In this document: positions 2,448 to 47,916 of the stretch, one piece after another
Position numbering within the stretch: position 1 is the stretch's first letter
Layout: every line of letters begins with the position of its first letter
Source: Escherichia phage 215Ecol030PP
Reading direction: 5' to 3' (one strand)
DNA: 64,000 nt
Sequence record: PP328843.1
Made by a program: the position numbers and the translations under genes
Notes under the pieces: model-generated
Told to the model about the DNA's origin: nothing
The model's database searches: none
Seen by the model: only the letters and a program-made list of their open reading frames with translations

Positions 2448-2979
2448 TACTGGCTCATCCATTCTTTACGAAGGTCAGCGTTATCTCCCATGAGCATTTC
2501 AAAAAGCTCTTTCCAGTTCTCAGGAAGTTTAACAACATCATATACTGGGTTTTGAATCATCTCACGATATTCAGATTTTTCCAAAGAGCCAAGTCCCTTA
2601 ATATAACGGATGCTATGTTTAGGTAGAGTATCTTTAGCACTCTCATATTCAGCGACTGTATAAAACCATTTTTGAGTTTTGCCAATTTGTGCAATAATTA
2701 CAGGCGTTTTAACAAAGCGAATACGTCCTTGTTCAAACAATTCTGGCCAATTACTAAAAAATCCGAGCAGAGAAGGATAAATAGAACCTAATCCAATAAT
2801 CTCTTAATTATGAGGTATTTCTATGGATAGCCCGAAGGCTATCCATCGTGATCTGCGTCTGTCATAATAGCGACATTCGCATAGTTCATTGAAGAGGATT
2901 TAATAGAACGACGAACATTGTTCTGCAATTTATATTTTTTCATATCAACGCTAGAAGAATCAATTTTTACAAATTTCAT
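2447..2979 (-). CDS. 60: DNA topoisomerase II medium subunit gp60, 160 aa, translated with a 50-nt ribosomal bypass: join(2979..2842, 2791..2447) on minus strand
   Basis: N-terminal 46 codons MKFVKIDSSSVDMKKYKLQNNVRRSIKSSSMNYANVAIMTDADHDG end at GGA (2842-2844) followed by UAG (2839-2841); coding resumes after landing GGA (2792-2794) with LGSIYPSLLGFFSNWPELFEQGRIRF...; 46+114 codons = 160 aa. Confidence 0.9.
2792..2841 (-). other. 50-nt untranslated coding gap of gene 60 (programmed translational bypass / ribosome hopping element)
   Basis: Exactly 50 nt between take-off GGA and resume codon UUA, beginning UAG and ending with matching landing GGA; take-off hairpin GGAUAGCC-UUCG-GGCUAUCC spans 2825-2844. 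Confidence 0.9.
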
Positions 2980-3778
2980 TATACACCTCATAGAACTTTT
3001 CATCAGGAATCCAACCGCGTTTAAATTCATTAAATGCTCGGCCGAATAATTTTGAATTCACAGTTATATTATTAACTGATTTCCATTTAGCAACTCCTGT
3101 TCGTTTATAATGATCGGGGTCATATTTCGTGACGTACCATTCATATAAATTTGGTATTAATTTTACAGCCTCTGGATTTGTCGCTGATTTATTATACCAT
3201 GGTTTCGCTTTTTCAAGTTCAGCTGCTTTTGCAGTAGCAGCAACAGTATTTCCAATACCAACTAATTTTTCAGCTTTAATGCGTGGATCATTAACATGAA
3301 GACGAAAAACTTCGCCCTTTTCATTTTTAAAGCATGTCATGCCTTTAATTCCAGGAAGCTTAACACCTTTATTAACACCGCACCATTCCTTTGGGTTAAA
3401 TGATCCTTTAATTAATAAGGCGCATTTACCCGATTTAATACTTCTCATTAAAACTTTATCTTTCATAAAGTTTTTTGACCATTCAGATACTGCTCTTTGA
3501 TGGTAAATTCTAGCGATTTCATATAATTTACTAGAACGTAAATATTTTTCAGTGTTTAACATTCTATTCATCGCATATGCCATTTCACGATTACGATGAA
3601 TTTTATATAGTAGAAAATGTGCTAAAAAGTGTTCACGAAAAGTCAGTTTCACCAAATTTTCTTTATCATCAGAACCTCCCATTGATCTTGGAAGGATATG
3701 ATGAATTTCACCCTTAAATTTAGAAACGCGGGTTTTACCCCGCACTATTAAGTCATTATAGATTTTTTCGTAATTCAC
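2960..3778 (-). CDS. mobA: MobA HNH homing endonuclease, 272 aa, inserted between topoisomerase genes 39 and 60
   Basis: HNH motif HHILPRSMGGSDDKENLVKLTFREHFLAHF; N-terminus MNYEKIYN matches the MNY..IY N-termini of the two other Mob-type ORFs in the window; apparent GTG start at 3776-3778; 3' end overlaps gene 60 start by about 20 nt. Confidence 0.85.
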   Translation of the reverse strand: MNYEKIYNDLIVRGKTRVSKFKGEIHHILPRSMGGSDDKENLVKLTFREHFLAHFLLYKIHRNREMAYAMNRMLNTEKYLRSSKLYEIARIYHQRAVSEWSKNFMKDKVLMRSIKSGKCALLIKGSFNPKEWCGVNKGVKLPGIKGMTCFKNEKGEVFRLHVNDPRIKAEKLVGIGNTVAATAKAAELEKAKPWYNKSATNPEAVKLIPNLYEWYVTKYDPDHYKRTGVAKWKSVNNITVNSKLFGRAFNEFKRGWIPDEKFYEVYNEICKN

Positions 3779-5306
3779 CTACTGTTATCCATTTACCATT
3801 AATCTGTACTTCATCATTTTCATTTACGATAATTGTATCGCCATTTAGTTCGAAAGTAAACCACTCGCCATCTTCTTTTTCTTCAAACGCTTTTTCACCA
3901 AGAACTAATCCAGTGATTGCGCAAATATCAAACAGTTCTTTGTTTTTAAGCATATCAGCATATGACATACCCCAACTGTTGAGAACTTTACCACGCAATG
4001 GATAACCACCATGAAGTTCTTTATCACGAACATCAATAAGATATCCGATAGCCGAATCACCCTCAGTCAAGAAAAGAGTAGTGTCAGCATCTTTACCACA
4101 AAGATTCGCTTTAATATGTTTATGAACCTTAGCTTTAGAAGCCTTTTTAGCCGCTTTAGTTTCTGCTGCTTTTTCTGCCGCCAATTTACGAGCTAATGCT
4201 GCTTCAATAATCGGCATTAAAATTGCTTCATTATTTAGAATAGCACGTGAAATCTTTTTAGCATCAAGTTGAATATGACTACGGATTTCACCAAATGGAG
4301 AAGTCAAACGCTCTTTAGTTTGAGAATCAAATCGCATGTTTTTCATATCACGAACAAACATAACGATAGTCAAACATTCTTTGACACGCGCTTTAGTTAC
4401 ATCAATTTTGAATTTACGTTTGATTTGTGGAATAAGGTCTTCACAAATATCATCCATAACGCAGTCAATGTGATGGCCACCATTCTTAGTGTGAATGTTA
4501 TTCACATAAGTTAATTGACGAAAACCATCCGGTGAACGACCAACCGCAATAGAACAATTTTCTTGTTCTTGAACGATAGCATGTTCATCATACTGTCGTG
4601 CATATTTCTTAAAATTGCCCTGAACCTTTTTACCATTAAAGGTAAATTGAATATCAGGATAAACTACTGCAAGTGTCTGGAGACGATCCAGTGTAATGTC
4701 AAGATAAACTTGGGACAGCTCATTAGTTTCAAATGACATAAAATCTGGAATGAAAGTAACACGAGTTCCTTTCCATTTTCCAGGAATAGTTTCCCAGGAT
4801 TTATTTTCCATGCCATTTGAACAACGAACTACAATATTATTTTGACCATCGCCAGTTTCACCAACAAACATCACAGAAAAAATGTTTGTCAAACTAGAAC
4901 CAACACCATTCATACCGCCAGTGACGCGTTCTTTATCATCACCGAAGTTACCACCTGCTTTTGGAATAGTCCATGCAGCAACAGGACCAGGAATTTCTTC
5001 ACCGGTAGGTGTTTTAACCATCGCCTGTGGAATACCACGACCGTTATCTTCAACTGTTACTTGATTGTTTTTAATAGTAACATTAATTTTATTTGCGAAT
5101 TTAAACTTAGTACGAATACCTTCATCTACTGAGTTATCGATAATTTCATCAATAAGCTTAACAAGACCAGGTACATACTGAACACTTTCCCATTTACCAA
5201 ACAGAAAGCGCTCATGCATTTCATTAGCAGAAGAGCCAATGTACATGCCGCTACGCTTTTTGATATGTTCAATATCGCTCAGAATTTTAATTTCATTCTT
5301 AATCAT
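3756..5306 (-). CDS. 39: DNA topoisomerase II large (ATPase, GyrB-like) subunit gp39, 516 aa
   Basis: GHKL ATPase and Toprim-type motifs (EDNGRGIP, GGxNGVGSS); ATG at 5304-5306 (the ORF track starts one codon upstream at a GTG). Confidence 0.95.
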   Translation of the reverse strand: MIKNEIKILSDIEHIKKRSGMYIGSSANEMHERFLFGKWESVQYVPGLVKLIDEIIDNSVDEGIRTKFKFANKINVTIKNNQVTVEDNGRGIPQAMVKTPTGEEIPGPVAAWTIPKAGGNFGDDKERVTGGMNGVGSSLTNIFSVMFVGETGDGQNNIVVRCSNGMENKSWETIPGKWKGTRVTFIPDFMSFETNELSQVYLDITLDRLQTLAVVYPDIQFTFNGKKVQGNFKKYARQYDEHAIVQEQENCSIAVGRSPDGFRQLTYVNNIHTKNGGHHIDCVMDDICEDLIPQIKRKFKIDVTKARVKECLTIVMFVRDMKNMRFDSQTKERLTSPFGEIRSHIQLDAKKISRAILNNEAILMPIIEAALARKLAAEKAAETKAAKKASKAKVHKHIKANLCGKDADTTLFLTEGDSAIGYLIDVRDKELHGGYPLRGKVLNSWGMSYADMLKNKELFDICAITGLVLGEKAFEEKEDGEWFTFELNGDTIIVNENDEVQINGKWITVGELRKNL

Positions 5307-43303: not shown

Positions 43304-43774
43304 TTAATCATGTTTCCACACCCCATCGGTATTTGACCAAAGTCGCTGATTATCTGATCCTCGCCACAACTTTTTGGTCGGAAGATTTTTCTCATACTTC
43401 CCATCAATAATAACATCAACATATTTAAGCATTTCTAGTTGTTTAATATCTTCAAACTTATATCCTGTCCACAACCAGATATCTTTCTTCGGAAATCTTG
43501 CTTTAACCCAAGAAACTAAATTTGAAATCTCTTCTCGGTTCTGTGGATAAAGTGGGTCACCACCGGTTAAGGTAAGGCCTTGGATATACGATTTGCTTAA
43601 ATGGGACGCAAGTTCTTTAACGGTATTCATAGTGAATAACTGTCCGTTACGAGCATTCCAAGTACTACGATTATAACAACCTTCGCATTTATGCAAACAT
43701 CCAGTGACGAAGAGAACGACCCTGCATCCAGGACCATTAACAAAGCAGCACGGGTATATTCTATCATAATTCAT
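43304..43774 (-). CDS. nrdG: anaerobic ribonucleotide reductase activating protein NrdG (radical SAM), 156 aa
   Basis: Radical SAM CxxxCxxC (CLHKCEGC); ATG at 43772-43774 (track ORF extends upstream into mobC). Confidence 0.88.
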   Translation of the reverse strand: MNYDRIYPCCFVNGPGCRVVLFVTGCLHKCEGCYNRSTWNARNGQLFTMNTVKELASHLSKSYIQGLTLTGGDPLYPQNREEISNLVSWVKARFPKKDIWLWTGYKFEDIKQLEMLKYVDVIIDGKYEKNLPTKKLWRGSDNQRLWSNTDGVWKHD

Positions 43775-44396
43775 CTTTATATTTCCAAGTATATCCCTTA
43801 TGAATAGATTGAATTCCTTTGCAACATTTATAAACAGCAGAATGAAAAAATCCTGCATTTCTTATTTCAGTTGCTCCAGTTAGTTCTATTGTATTTCCGT
43901 CTGGTGAATAGCCAATAACCGTTTTGGTGTTAAAGCGATTTCTAGAACTATTTTTGATATGCTCTTTATGACTAGTAGACAAAGTTCTTCCTGTTAGCCC
44001 ATCAGATATCCTTTTTCCAAAATCATCAGGAAGAGTTACTTTAGACCTAGCTATGCTCATTAGCTTCTTAGTTTTATCGCTTCTTTTTGCGCCACGCTGA
44101 TTTTCAAATTTCTTAGCTTTTGCATACGCGTATTGTGAAGAAGTAACTTTTCTATGCTTACTATTACTCATTATCCAATATGCATCATACATCTTTCCAC
44201 CATATATTTTAGCCAATAAATGGTGAGCAGTATAGTGGGCCTTATAAGTTAAAAATACTAAGTTGTCTAAATCATCTGAACCACCCATACTTCTTGGAAT
44301 TATATGATGAAGTTCATACCCGGCTTTAGTTTGACGGGGCTTAGATGGGTGTTCAGCAGAATTAACTAGATTTGAATAGATTCTGTCATAATTCAT
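43764..44396 (-). CDS. mobC: MobC-like HNH homing endonuclease, 210 aa
   Basis: HNH motif LHHIIPRSMGGSDDLDNLVFLTYKAHYTAH; N-terminus MNYDRIYS; inserted between nrdD and nrdG. Confidence 0.78.
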   Translation of the reverse strand: MNYDRIYSNLVNSAEHPSKPRQTKAGYELHHIIPRSMGGSDDLDNLVFLTYKAHYTAHHLLAKIYGGKMYDAYWIMSNSKHRKVTSSQYAYAKAKKFENQRGAKRSDKTKKLMSIARSKVTLPDDFGKRISDGLTGRTLSTSHKEHIKNSSRNRFNTKTVIGYSPDGNTIELTGATEIRNAGFFHSAVYKCCKGIQSIHKGYTWKYKDEL

Positions 44397-44408: not shown

Positions 44409-45688
44409 CTATGCATGTTTTACTCGTTTTACCATTTCTTTCATTTTACCTAAATTCCATGGAACAACGCTAGGAGTTCCAAGATATCCGCATGTTCTTC
44501 TTATTGTGTTCATCTTTTTAGGATCAGTTTCTCCACAAATAGAACAAACAAATCCGTTTTCAGTAGGAGTCATTTCATGGGTACTTCCACACGTAAAACA
44601 TTTATCTACTGGCATATTAACACCAAAATAATCTAAATGTTGTGCAGCATAATCCCATACAGCCTCAAGACCTTTTAAGTTATTTTTCATATCAGGAAGT
44701 TCAACATAAGAAATGTGACCACCTGTCGCAATGAAATGATATGGCGCTTCACGAGAAATCTTTTCAAACGGAGTAATATTTTCTTCTACTGAAACATGGA
44801 AACTGTTAGTGTACCAACCTTTATCAGTAACATCCTTTACACTTCCATATTTTTCTGTATCGAGTTTACAGAAGCGATAACAAAGGTTTTCAGCAGGAGT
44901 CGAATATAAACTAAAAGCAAATCCAGTTCTTTCAGTCCACTGTTTAAGACGAGCATTCATTTTAGTTAAAATTTCTCGTCCAATATCACGACCGGCAAGA
45001 ATATTCAATTCGTGAATACCAATGTATCCTAGGGACACTGAACTTCTACCGTTTTTAAATAACTCAATTATGTCGTCATCAGGTTTAAGACGAACCCCGA
45101 ATGCACCTTCTTGGTAAAGAATAGGAGCAACAGTCGCTTTAACTCCTTTTAAGGAACTAATTCTACACATCAAAGCTTCAAAACATAAATCCATTCGCTC
45201 ATTGAATAATTCAGTAAATTTCTGTTCATTGAACTGTGTTCCAATATAAGAATCTAACGCGATGCGAGGAAGATTCAGTGTTACAACACCAAGATTATTA
45301 CGTCCATCAAGAATTTCATTACCAGTCGAATCTTTCCATACGCTCAAGAAACTACGGCAACCCATTGGAGAAACAGGAATAGATGAACCAGTGATAGCTT
45401 TATTGTTCTTAGCTGAAATAATATCAGGATACATCCTTTTGCTTGCACACTCTAGAGCAAGCTGCTTAATATCATAGTTCGGATCGTCTTTATAAAGATT
45501 AACACCTTCTTCAACAAACATAACAAGCTTAGGGAAAATAGGAGTTATCCCATCACGACCGAGACCTTTAATACGATTTTTCAGAATTGCTTTCTGAATC
45601 ATTCGTTCAGTCCAGTCAGTTCCCGTACCAAATGTAATTGTTACAAAAGGAGTCTGTCCGTTTGAACTGAAAAGTGTATTTACTTCAT
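44409..45688 (-). CDS. nrdD: anaerobic ribonucleoside-triphosphate reductase NrdD, exon 2 (C-terminal 426 codons including the split Tyr codon)
   Basis: Glycyl-radical motif RRTCGYLG near C-terminus; proposed splice joins ...QAYE-Y-EVNTLF... and gives 605 aa in total. Confidence 0.85.
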
Positions 45689-45714
45689 CATTATATTCAG
45701 CATGAGTCGCAAAT

Positions 45715-45919
45715 TCATGCTCGTTTATATGAAACAACAAAATTTGGATAGTCCATAGATATGCAACGTTCTTTTATAGTGCTAGGATGAAAATTTAGCG
45801 CTTTAGCTGCTTCTATATAAGACGTATACTTAATACCGTCAACAACCACATATTCAGGAACTTTATGAATAGTAGTCTTTATCTTTTATTTTAGTACAAC
45901 GTCTTTTTATCCATTTCAT
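45715..45919 (-). pseudogene. remnant of intron-encoded homing endonuclease: 18-codon N-terminal stub plus out-of-frame 56-codon C-terminal DNA-binding fragment
   Basis: Late-promoter-like TATAAATA (45949-45956), SD GAGGUGA, ATG at 45917-45919 then MKWIKRRCTKIKDKDYYS-stop; in the +1 frame ...VPEYVVVDGIKYTSYIEAAKALNFHPSTIKERCISMDYPNFVVSYKRA resembles the C-terminal helix-turn-helix tail of GIY-YIG intron endonucleases. Confidence 0.6.
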
Positions 45920-45948
45920 TGTTTCACCTCGTATTCATAAGATAATCT

Positions 45949-45956
45949 TATTTATA
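45949..45956 (-). promoter_or_regulatory. T4 late-promoter-like TATAAATA inside the nrdD intron
   Basis: Exact TATAAATA on the minus strand about 30 nt upstream of the endonuclease stub ATG. Confidence 0.4.
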
Positions 45957-46167
45957 CAAGATGACTGCTGCATGTCGCCATGCAGATTAGACTATATCTT
46001 CATCTTTCGATGCCGGCCGTTTCGAATAGCATTAGCTTCTATTCTACACCGCTACATTCATCACGGTTAGTCGTTAGGCATTTAGTTCAAAAGAACATTT
46101 AGCACGGGATTGTCTACTAGAGAGGTTCCCCGTTTAGACCGGTTTTACATGAGCCTGAATTAAATTA

Positions 46168-46705
46168 ACTCATACGCCTGGAATGCATCGTATACATCTT
46201 TTTCTGTTTTAGATTGAGCATAATTCAACGCATCAGCGATTTGCCATTTTTCTGCATCCTCAATATGTTTTGCATAGGTGCGTTTAACATAAGGAGAAAG
46301 TACTTTATCTACATTTGCAAAAGTCGTTCCGCCATATTGATGGGAAGCAACCTGCGCAGTAATTTGTGCCATAATTGCAGTAGCAACGCCAATTGATTTA
46401 GGAGTTTCAATCTGTGCATTACCTAGCTTAAATCCGTTCTCAAGCATTCCTTTTAAATCTACTAAACAGCAATTAGTAAATGGAAGAGCAGGGGAATAAT
46501 CAATATCATGGAAATGGATAATTCCGCTTTCATGCGCTTTCATAATAAAAGACGGGACCATATTTTTGGCAATGTGTTTAGACACAATACCAGCCATAAG
46601 GTCCCGTTGAGTTGGAAAAACACGAGAATCTTTATTAGCATTCTCGTTTAAAAGGTCTTTATTAGTTTTATGAATCAATCCTTCAATTTCTTTTTCAATT
46701 GTCAT
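46168..46705 (-). CDS. nrdD: anaerobic ribonucleoside-triphosphate reductase NrdD, exon 1 (N-terminal 179 codons)
   Basis: ATG at 46703-46705; ORF continues in frame into the intron for only 2 codons before a stop. Confidence 0.85.
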
Positions 46706-47175
46706 TTTAAACTCTTTCTAAGCTGCTTCTTAAATGAAGCTATTAACTGTGTTTTGGTGTCAGATTCATTATATTCAAATCCTCTTTGAAGCATCTCGGC
46801 CATCATTTCCTCTTTTCCTAAACGAGAAAATTCCTTTGATTTATCTCCAACAAAGTTAGGGTGAATATTATTTTGGGTGTAATCGGATTTTAAATAAGTA
46901 AGTAAATTTTCTAACCATTCAAGATAATCAACACCTTGTCCCTTTAAGCCAGAACGATTAAATTTATGCTTCATTTGACCTTCTGCAGCATTGCAGAGAT
47001 TACAAAGCAATCCACGTATCTTTCCTGCTTTTGGTCCATTTAATTCATGGTCATGATCAAGATGATTAGCTTGAACATCAGGATTTAGTTCTCGTTGGCA
47101 AATTAAGCATTTACCGTTTTGTGCATTATAAAATTTCTGTTTTTCTTCTTTGTATAATTTGCCAGTCAATAACAT
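46702..47175 (-). CDS. 49: endonuclease VII (Holliday junction resolvase) gp49, 157 aa
   Basis: Zinc-binding CLICQ...CNLCN and catalytic HLDHDHE region; sequence recognised as T4 endo VII; ATGA overlap with nrdD start. Confidence 0.93.
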   Translation of the reverse strand: MLLTGKLYKEEKQKFYNAQNGKCLICQRELNPDVQANHLDHDHELNGPKAGKIRGLLCNLCNAAEGQMKHKFNRSGLKGQGVDYLEWLENLLTYLKSDYTQNNIHPNFVGDKSKEFSRLGKEEMMAEMLQRGFEYNESDTKTQLIASFKKQLRKSLK

Positions 47176-47217: not shown

Positions 47218-47394
47218 TTAAGTATTGTAAAACATTCGATGCAATCGTTTATACTGTCGAATCATCTTTTTAGTAGGACGAGAATAGGTTCCTACGCAAG
47301 TGGTCATATGAGGGTCCGTAGAATGTCCTTTAATAAAAAGTTTCCAAACCTTACCGCCATTTAACTTTTCAGTATAAACCAATTCGGTTTTCAT
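47218..47394 (-). CDS. small protein, 58 aa, whose C-terminal 14 aa duplicate the C-terminus of the adjacent Pin-like gene (not in ORF track)
   Basis: Own translation MKTELVYTEKLNGGKVWKLFIKGHSTDPHMTTCVGTYSRPTKKMIRQYKRLHRMFYNT; 3' end lies in a 43-bp direct repeat. Confidence 0.45.
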   Translation of the reverse strand: MKTELVYTEKLNGGKVWKLFIKGHSTDPHMTTCVGTYSRPTKKMIRQYKRLHRMFYNT

Positions 47395-47430
47395 TAAAAT
47401 GCCTTGTCAGAAAAAGAATTTTGAGTTTTT

Positions 47431-47916
47431 TCAAGTATTGTAAAACATTTGATGCAATCGCTTATATTGCCGAATCTTTTGGTCAGAAAAAGAAATTTGA
47501 TTTTCAAGCCATTCAATGTATTCTGCGGCAGCTTGCATCAGGTTACCTTCATAGCCATCGTTATTTTCTTGTGCAGCTAATTTAGCTAATGCGTATGAAA
47601 TACGTTCACCTTGAAAATCGGCTTTAGGCTTCTGAACAACTTGATTAGTTTGCTCTACAACTTCTTCAATTTCGCCATTTTCTACTGATTCAGTATTCCA
47701 CAAACACCAATACGTAATTGGTTTATCGTAGATGTTAATAATCTTTCCATCAGAAAGTTCAATTTCAATAATTCCAGTATCAGGTTCTATATCATCTTCA
47801 CATTCTTTTGCAAGTTCACGAACTTTAAAGACAGTACCTGCACTAAGTTCCGGCCAGTAATTACATAGCCCTGTATCAGCACGATTAATTCTAAACCACT
47901 TATCTACTGTAATCAT
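47431..47916 (-). CDS. PinA-like protein (inhibitor of host Lon protease, by position and size), about 161 aa
   Basis: ATG at 47914-47916; size matches recalled T4 pin; no diagnostic motif. Confidence 0.55.
   Translation of the reverse strand: MITVDKWFRINRADTGLCNYWPELSAGTVFKVRELAKECEDDIEPDTGIIEIELSDGKIINIYDKPITYWCLWNTESVENGEIEEVVEQTNQVVQKPKADFQGERISYALAKLAAQENNDGYEGNLMQAAAEYIEWLENQISFSDQKIRQYKRLHQMFYNT

Follow-up and report, generated by a model that had tools for sequence, protein, structure and literature searches.

The question raised by this locus is whether the 479 nt that interrupt nrdD are a functional group I intron and, if so, what has become of the homing endonuclease gene within them. 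For the 64-kb window (the whole stretch of DNA that was analysed), the reading favored here, at a probability of roughly 90%, is a self-splicing intron of the T4 nrdD/sunY lineage whose GIY-YIG endonuclease gene was inactivated by one recent deletion of 566 nt between AAGAC repeats. The gene order on the minus strand matches that of T4, with gene 49, nrdD exon 1, the intron, exon 2, mobC and nrdG in succession, and the elements pertinent to the reading frame and to splicing are as follows.

46702-47175, minus strand: gene 49 (endonuclease VII).
46168-46705, minus strand: nrdD exon 1, 538 nt, whose last base, U (46168), is in the U.G pair at the 5′ splice site.
46160-46162, minus strand: in-frame TAA two codons into the intron (the exon-1 frame ends ...AYELI*).
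46148-46154, minus strand: internal guide sequence GCUCAUG, forming P1 with exon-1 UAUGAGU (7 pairs, U.G at the splice site).
45968-46203, minus strand: ribozyme core P1-P9 by the Rfam covariance model, including 36 nt of exon 1.
45689-46167, minus strand: group I intron of 479 nt, derived by deletion from a 1045-nt allele (from Rfam and alignments to the JM10 (L001), SA20RB (L002) and T4 loci).
44409-45688, minus strand: nrdD exon 2.
43764-44396, minus strand: mobC, a free-standing HNH homing endonuclease gene of 210 aa adjoining nrdD (HNH Pfam match).

The NrdD frame is broken after ...DAFQAYE and resumes 479 nt later, as the original prediction had it, and the joined exons amount to 1818 nt, or 605 aa, reading ...DAFQAYE-Y-EVNTLF... 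across the junction, with excision of the intron restoring an uninterrupted nrdD reading frame. The joined product is identical to T4 NrdD at 590 of 605 residues (97.5%), and the annotated T4 join has the same junction and length, exon 1 being 538 nt in both. The U-ending 5′ exon and G-ending intron that had been anticipated are present as U46168 and, for the last intron base, G45689, and the junction between them is that of the annotated T4 join. Rfam family RF00028 matches 45968-46203 of the minus strand over model positions 1-253 of 253, and since the score is 70.9 bits (gathering threshold 50), the E-value 5.5e-16 and this family the sole one matched within the window, the match is not due to chance. 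Together with P1 and its U.G pair, the terminal G and the restored 605-aa frame, this upholds the proposal of a group I intron in nrdD, and its location at the exact T4 sunY/nrdD insertion site is confirmed.

Comparison with the T4 nrdD (sunY) intron, which had been suggested as a check, shows that the two are homologous and at the same site, with 73.8% identity over 96% of the core. The T4 intron, described in the original prediction as about 1 kb long with an intact endonuclease gene, is indeed of that kind, being 1033 nt and encoding I-TevII. The two share the gene, the insertion site and the junction residues, and also the P1-P9 core, late promoter, hairpin sequestering the Shine-Dalgarno (SD) sequence, ORF, homologous 3′-terminal domain with its hairpin, and terminal G, the ORF being placed downstream of P9 in both. 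The window allele differs in having an extra inner hairpin of 9 nt at the promoter, a td-like P3-P5 block, and a length of 479 nt (ORF deleted) as against 1033 nt.

Aspects of the core have their own bearing on intron history. Its P3-P5 block (46097-46138, minus strand, CTAAACGGGGAACCTCTCTAGTAGACAATCCCGTGCTAAATG) recurs at 100% identity in td introns of many T4-like phages, and matches the td intron of G2133 at 41 of 42 positions, with the T4 nrdD intron differing at about 9 positions there. This suggests, from the sequence, that core segments may have been exchanged between td and nrdD introns, and domain shuffling among introns was reportedly described by Bryk and Belfort in 1990. Also, the core (45960-46167, minus strand) is 79-82% identical, and in parts 87%, to introns with HNH ORFs in unrelated large myoviruses (JEP1, phiWec191, nepoznato and Felix O1-like phages; MT740314, LC739540, NC_052658), which is nearer than its likeness to the T4 nrdD intron (~74%). 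Core and endonuclease gene seem, on such identities, to have had separate histories.

Closer kin of the window's intron are those here termed type 2, full-length introns of the parent type that are 1045 nt long and have a 771-nt ORF for 256 aa. In Tequatrovirus and Mosigvirus members such as JM10 (PP400777), SA20RB (OL960581), SHSML-52-1 and HY03, they are 99.6-100% identical to the window over the 479 retained nt and are in the same exon context, with the 208-nt ribozyme core 100% identical, but, unlike the window, they have the 771-nt ORF intact. The intact 256-aa protein matches SegE_GIY-YIG (PF19835) at residues 9-86 (26.6 bits) and NUMOD1 at 171-193, and over its full length shares 56% identity with T4 I-TevII. 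Pairwise alignment with JM10 and SA20RB leaves a single gap of 566 nt (positions 2882-3447 of the JM10 locus, L001), which is inside the 771-nt ORF (2842-3612 of the same locus, annotated as a homing endonuclease), and outside it there are 0-2 mismatches. A full-length metagenomic allele (L011; ENA ERZ28590029 scaffold_13) agrees with the window at 479 of 479 retained positions, which leaves the deletion as all that sets the window's intron apart from a known full-length one. The T4 reference intron was also considered as parent and rejected, its core being ~74% and its ORF 56% identical. That the intron is a deletion derivative, as had been proposed, is thus borne out by the 566-nt gap relative to its relatives, but it descends from a 1045-nt sister allele and not from the reference T4 intron.

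What is missing is ORF nucleotides 41-606, and 566 is 2 mod 3. In the full-length relatives AAGAC is present at both ends of the missing segment, in ...GATAAAGAC/GCATT... and ...ATTAAGAC/TACTA..., and the left flank reaches 5 nt further by BLAST than the breakpoint of the global aligner. AAGAC at the breakpoints is a microhomology signature of the sort that slippage or illegitimate recombination would leave. The coding remnants on its two sides, and the junction itself, are these.

45917-45919, minus strand: ATG of the stub.
45863-45919, minus strand: stub ORF MKWIKRRCTKIKDKDYYS, 18 codons plus stop, with 15 native residues and then frameshifted YYS.
45875-45879, minus strand: deletion junction, the single kept copy of the 5-nt direct repeat AAGAC.
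45715-45879, minus strand: out-of-frame C-terminal remnant, 54 codons plus stop, corresponding to residues 203-256 of the 256-aa protein.

The C-terminal part, ...VVVDGIKYTSYIEAAKALNFHPSTIKERCISMDYPNFVVSYKRA* at 45715-45849, is in a frame other than that of the stub, and it is homologous to the I-TevII C-terminus (aligning with I-TevII 203-256), in keeping with the endonuclease-tail fragment that had been discerned in another frame. Pfam found no domain in the remnant; that it would be a DNA-binding tail is by analogy to the architecture of I-TevI and I-TevII. The window has no continuous ORF with a GIY-YIG catalytic domain, the domain having been in the deleted part, and as both it and the NUMOD1 region are deleted and the frame is shifted, no endonuclease can be made.

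The signals and structures peripheral to the core are all outside the deletion, as are P1-P9, and comprise the following.

45949-45956, minus strand: late-promoter motif TATAAATA of the defunct endonuclease gene (homologue in T4, annotated in SA20RB).
45924-45964, minus strand: SD-sequestering hairpin of 11 bp, 5′ arm UCAUCUUGUAU and 3′ arm AUACGAGGUGA, enclosing the late-promoter motif.
45927-45930, minus strand: SD sequence GAGG.
45909-45928, minus strand: 5′ strand of a long-range helix over part of the SD sequence and AUG (predicted structure).
45729-45749, minus strand: 3′ strand of the same helix, at the 3′ end of the former ORF (predicted structure).
45699-45721, minus strand: 3′-terminal hairpin (P9.2-like), 7 bp, AGCAUGA-N9-UCAUGCU.

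The promoter-like TATAAATA, SD sequence, ATG and 18-codon stub of the original prediction are all where it had put them. Across the 64-kb window the minus (coding) strand has 3 copies of the motif and the plus strand has 0, with about 8 per strand expected from composition, and it appears to be avoided outside real promoters. Since the SD hairpin encloses it, late transcripts would be without the 5′ arm; the equivalent hairpin in T4 is CCUCGUAU/AUACGAGG, and the combination of SD hairpin and late promoter is a mode of regulation documented in PMC2988022. The long-range helix, with 20 predicted bp, closes the ORF into a loop. Relative to T4, 4 of the 7 pairs of the terminal hairpin have compensatory double changes (U-A/C-G, G-C/U-A, A-U/G-C and G-C/A-U), and base 45721, which is A in the window and in the metagenomic full-length allele and G in most relatives, turns a G.U pair into A-U. 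(A three-way MAFFT alignment misplaced the large gap and offset the terminal hairpin; pairwise alignment and direct listing of pairs were used instead.) Both the helix that closes the ORF and the terminal hairpin are predicted, with comparative support from only two diverged alleles.

Just upstream of the dead ORF, TATGAATACGAGGTGAA (45922-45938, minus strand) matches the homing site TATGAGT/ATGAAGTAAA at 13 of 17 positions, the site compared being the exon junction, 46158-46174 / 45679-45688. This is the resemblance of operator to homing site described for T4 intron endonucleases, and the operator-like sequence has been kept even with no endonuclease left to bind it.

From these components we infer that the intron RNA still splices. 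P1 would form with exon 1, exogenous G would attack after U46168, and terminal G45689 would then be used for exon ligation to give mRNA for the 605-aa NrdD, the ligated exons reading ...GCGTATGAGT/ATGAAGTAAAT. The deletion would do no more than shorten the loop between the core (P9) and the 3′-terminal domain, from ~730 to ~165 nt, with no helix touched, and the late promoter, SD hairpin and ATG would be fossils that drive synthesis of at most an 18-residue peptide. With no endonuclease made, the intron is no longer able to home by itself. It probably persists because nrdD would survive only a precise loss of the intron, an imprecise one being destructive. With the homing site still interrupted by the intron, I-TevII-type enzymes should be unable to cleave the allele. 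Spread would be confined to general recombination or to action in trans, whether of an intact endonuclease supplied by a co-infecting phage or, conceivably, of the adjoining MobC. An immobile intron that still splices, its endonuclease having entered the degenerative phase of the homing cycle, is most likely what is on view.

Full-length counterparts are widespread. When the region was searched by megablast against 50,697 phage records, 45 covered the whole query, and among the records listed all match in two pieces that span about 1227 nt, versus the 661 nt of the query. With the 256-aa protein as tblastn query, the type-2 ORF was found in 44 records and a T4-type I-TevII in about 25 more, the large deletion being found in none of either type. 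The type-2 ORF is in many metagenome contigs as well, and the exon-1 product with the ...AYELI* tail characteristic of the allele was met in 198 blocks of an assembly collection, with a full-length ORF in 10 of the 10 places examined. Looked up as exact proteins, the 44-aa remnant ORF and the 443-aa extended exon-2 ORF gave no record.

A junction that is present in no other record of four collections (a 71-nt junction probe had 0 of the 50,697 phage records covered to at least 80%, and the exact junction 30-mer had 0 matches in IMG/VR, GTDB genomes and JGI metagenomes) could signify an artefact of sequencing or assembly, or a deletion variant making up a minority of the phage stock, in which case the real genome would have the full 1045-nt intron. 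The 479 of 479 identity to a full-length allele is also what would be expected if the deletion were in silico, as it would be if the deletion were very recent. However, an assembly would not collapse on a repeat of only 5 nt, microhomology at the breakpoint fits real replication slippage or illegitimate recombination, and the flanks are otherwise colinear, so that an origin of this type is quite improbable. Slightly less probable again is that the deletion is real and crippled splicing, nrdD being effectively a pseudogene for an anaerobic reductase that is dispensable in aerobic laboratory growth. Nothing in the sequence points to such a loss: the core, the 3′ domain and the two splice sites are the same as in the relatives, engineered sunY introns that lack the ORF splice well in vitro, and both exons are open and encode a protein at the 97.5% identity to T4 NrdD given above. 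Nevertheless, the sunY core reportedly depends, from work of Michel et al. in 1992, on the remote 3′-terminal domain, so changes to the sequence between them could matter, and the new sequence neighbours brought into the loop by the deletion could in principle favor misfolding.

Possibilities for which selection rather than decay is invoked fare no better. One is a ‘domesticated’ intron, selected for its immunity to I-TevII-type cleavage, with its surviving late promoter, stub and C-terminal DNA-binding remnant expressed so as to hinder the endonuclease of co-infecting phages, as a decoy at the homing site, or to adjust late nrdD expression; this is scarcely likely. The least probable of all is that the remnant, translated from GTG 45849 or by re-initiation past the stop of the stub, has acquired a new function, for instance by binding DNA at the homing or operator site as a decoy or a repressor. 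The retained late promoter, SD sequence and ATG, the stop of the stub a few codons upstream of that GTG, and the persistence of the operator-like 13/17 match upstream would suit it, as would I-TevI being a known autorepressor (PMC2988022). Yet GTG 45849 has no SD sequence before it, the fragment has no Pfam domain, no gene with such a product is on record, and zero substitutions since the deletion mean that there has been no time for selection.

At the same loci the intron is far more conserved than nrdD, with 99.6-100% identity versus ~94-98% for exon 2. Relative to Mosigvirus JM10, a member of a different genus, identity in the flanks of ~80-90% rises to 100% between about 46300 and 45700, a stretch that takes in the intron together with ~130 nt of exon 1 and fewer nt of exon 2. 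From its pattern of identity, this jump looks like the footprint of recent homing, or horizontal intron transfer, with exon co-conversion. Milder decay is to be seen elsewhere: a 1-nt frameshift splits the type-2 ORF in two in F1, FN and 236Ecol005PP, and these are independent events affecting the same endonuclease gene. (The records concerned are PP434423, at 3787-4558 of locus L008, and, for F1 and FN, MT682712 / MZ170041.)

Defunct intron endonucleases and homing in trans both have precedents among T-even phages (PMC2988022, PMC2790892, PMC3984707). The nearest parallel is the T4 nrdB intron, in which I-TevIII is inactive through a large deletion and mobilization is in trans by the neighboring MobE (PMC2988022, PMC2790892), the endonuclease being intact in RB3. 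The window's intron is like it in being a T-even ribonucleotide-reductase intron with a deleted endonuclease (PMC1865063, PMC2790892, PMC2988022) and a free-standing mob HNH gene next door, but differs in the gene involved, in having lost a GIY-YIG rather than an HNH endonuclease, and in the position of the ORF within the intron. The nrdB intron keeps splicing, a property that for the window is deduced from sequence, and trans-homing by the neighbor has been demonstrated for the former and is conjecture for the latter. Both a defunct intron ORF and an adjoining intact free-standing endonuclease gene are nonetheless present in the window, whose mobC is 99-100% identical to T4 mobC across its body, and by analogy mobC is conceivably a candidate trans-mobilizer of the nrdD intron. 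The analogy is pure, since the target of MobC is listed as ‘unknown’, and its activity as ‘ND’, in Table 1 of PMC2988022. What occupies the slot between nrdD and nrdG varies from one carrier of this intron to another (loci L004-L013 compared with the window): the window has the T4-type mobC, and others have a 276-279-aa protein with a hint of NUMOD3, annotated in one case as MobC-like, or nothing.

The intron family, insertion site, regulatory design and decay of T-even endonucleases, the last exemplified by T4 I-TevIII, are all established. The 566-nt deletion, in an allele that is not that of T4, appears to be new to the collections searched. No concept is changed by it, since T-even phages with defunct intron endonucleases were already familiar decades ago. 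In a survey of T-even introns, Sandegren & Sjoberg (JBC, 2004) are said to have noted that “several HEGs have suffered deletions”, and that work and a paper by Sandegren et al. (NAR, 2005) reportedly surveyed T-even introns and mobC/segH. What the locus offers is a clear view, in nature, of the step at which a homing endonuclease degenerates, in which the parent allele is identified, a single microhomology deletion separates the two, and no further drift has ensued. It also brings to attention that T4-like phages circulate a second nrdD-intron allele, with a paralogue of I-TevII that is 56% identical to it; this type-2 allele is, to our knowledge, uncharacterised. PMC10448857 has nothing on I-TevII or nrdD. 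From a practical perspective, annotators should join the two nrdD exons and not call the stub and the remnant genes.

A separate difference is present nearby, between gene 49 and a pin-like gene, where a segment of ~215 nt (47218-47432) is absent from several otherwise colinear relatives (L004, L010, L011 and L012). Within it is an ORF of 58 aa (47218-47394), DUF7279-like in relatives.
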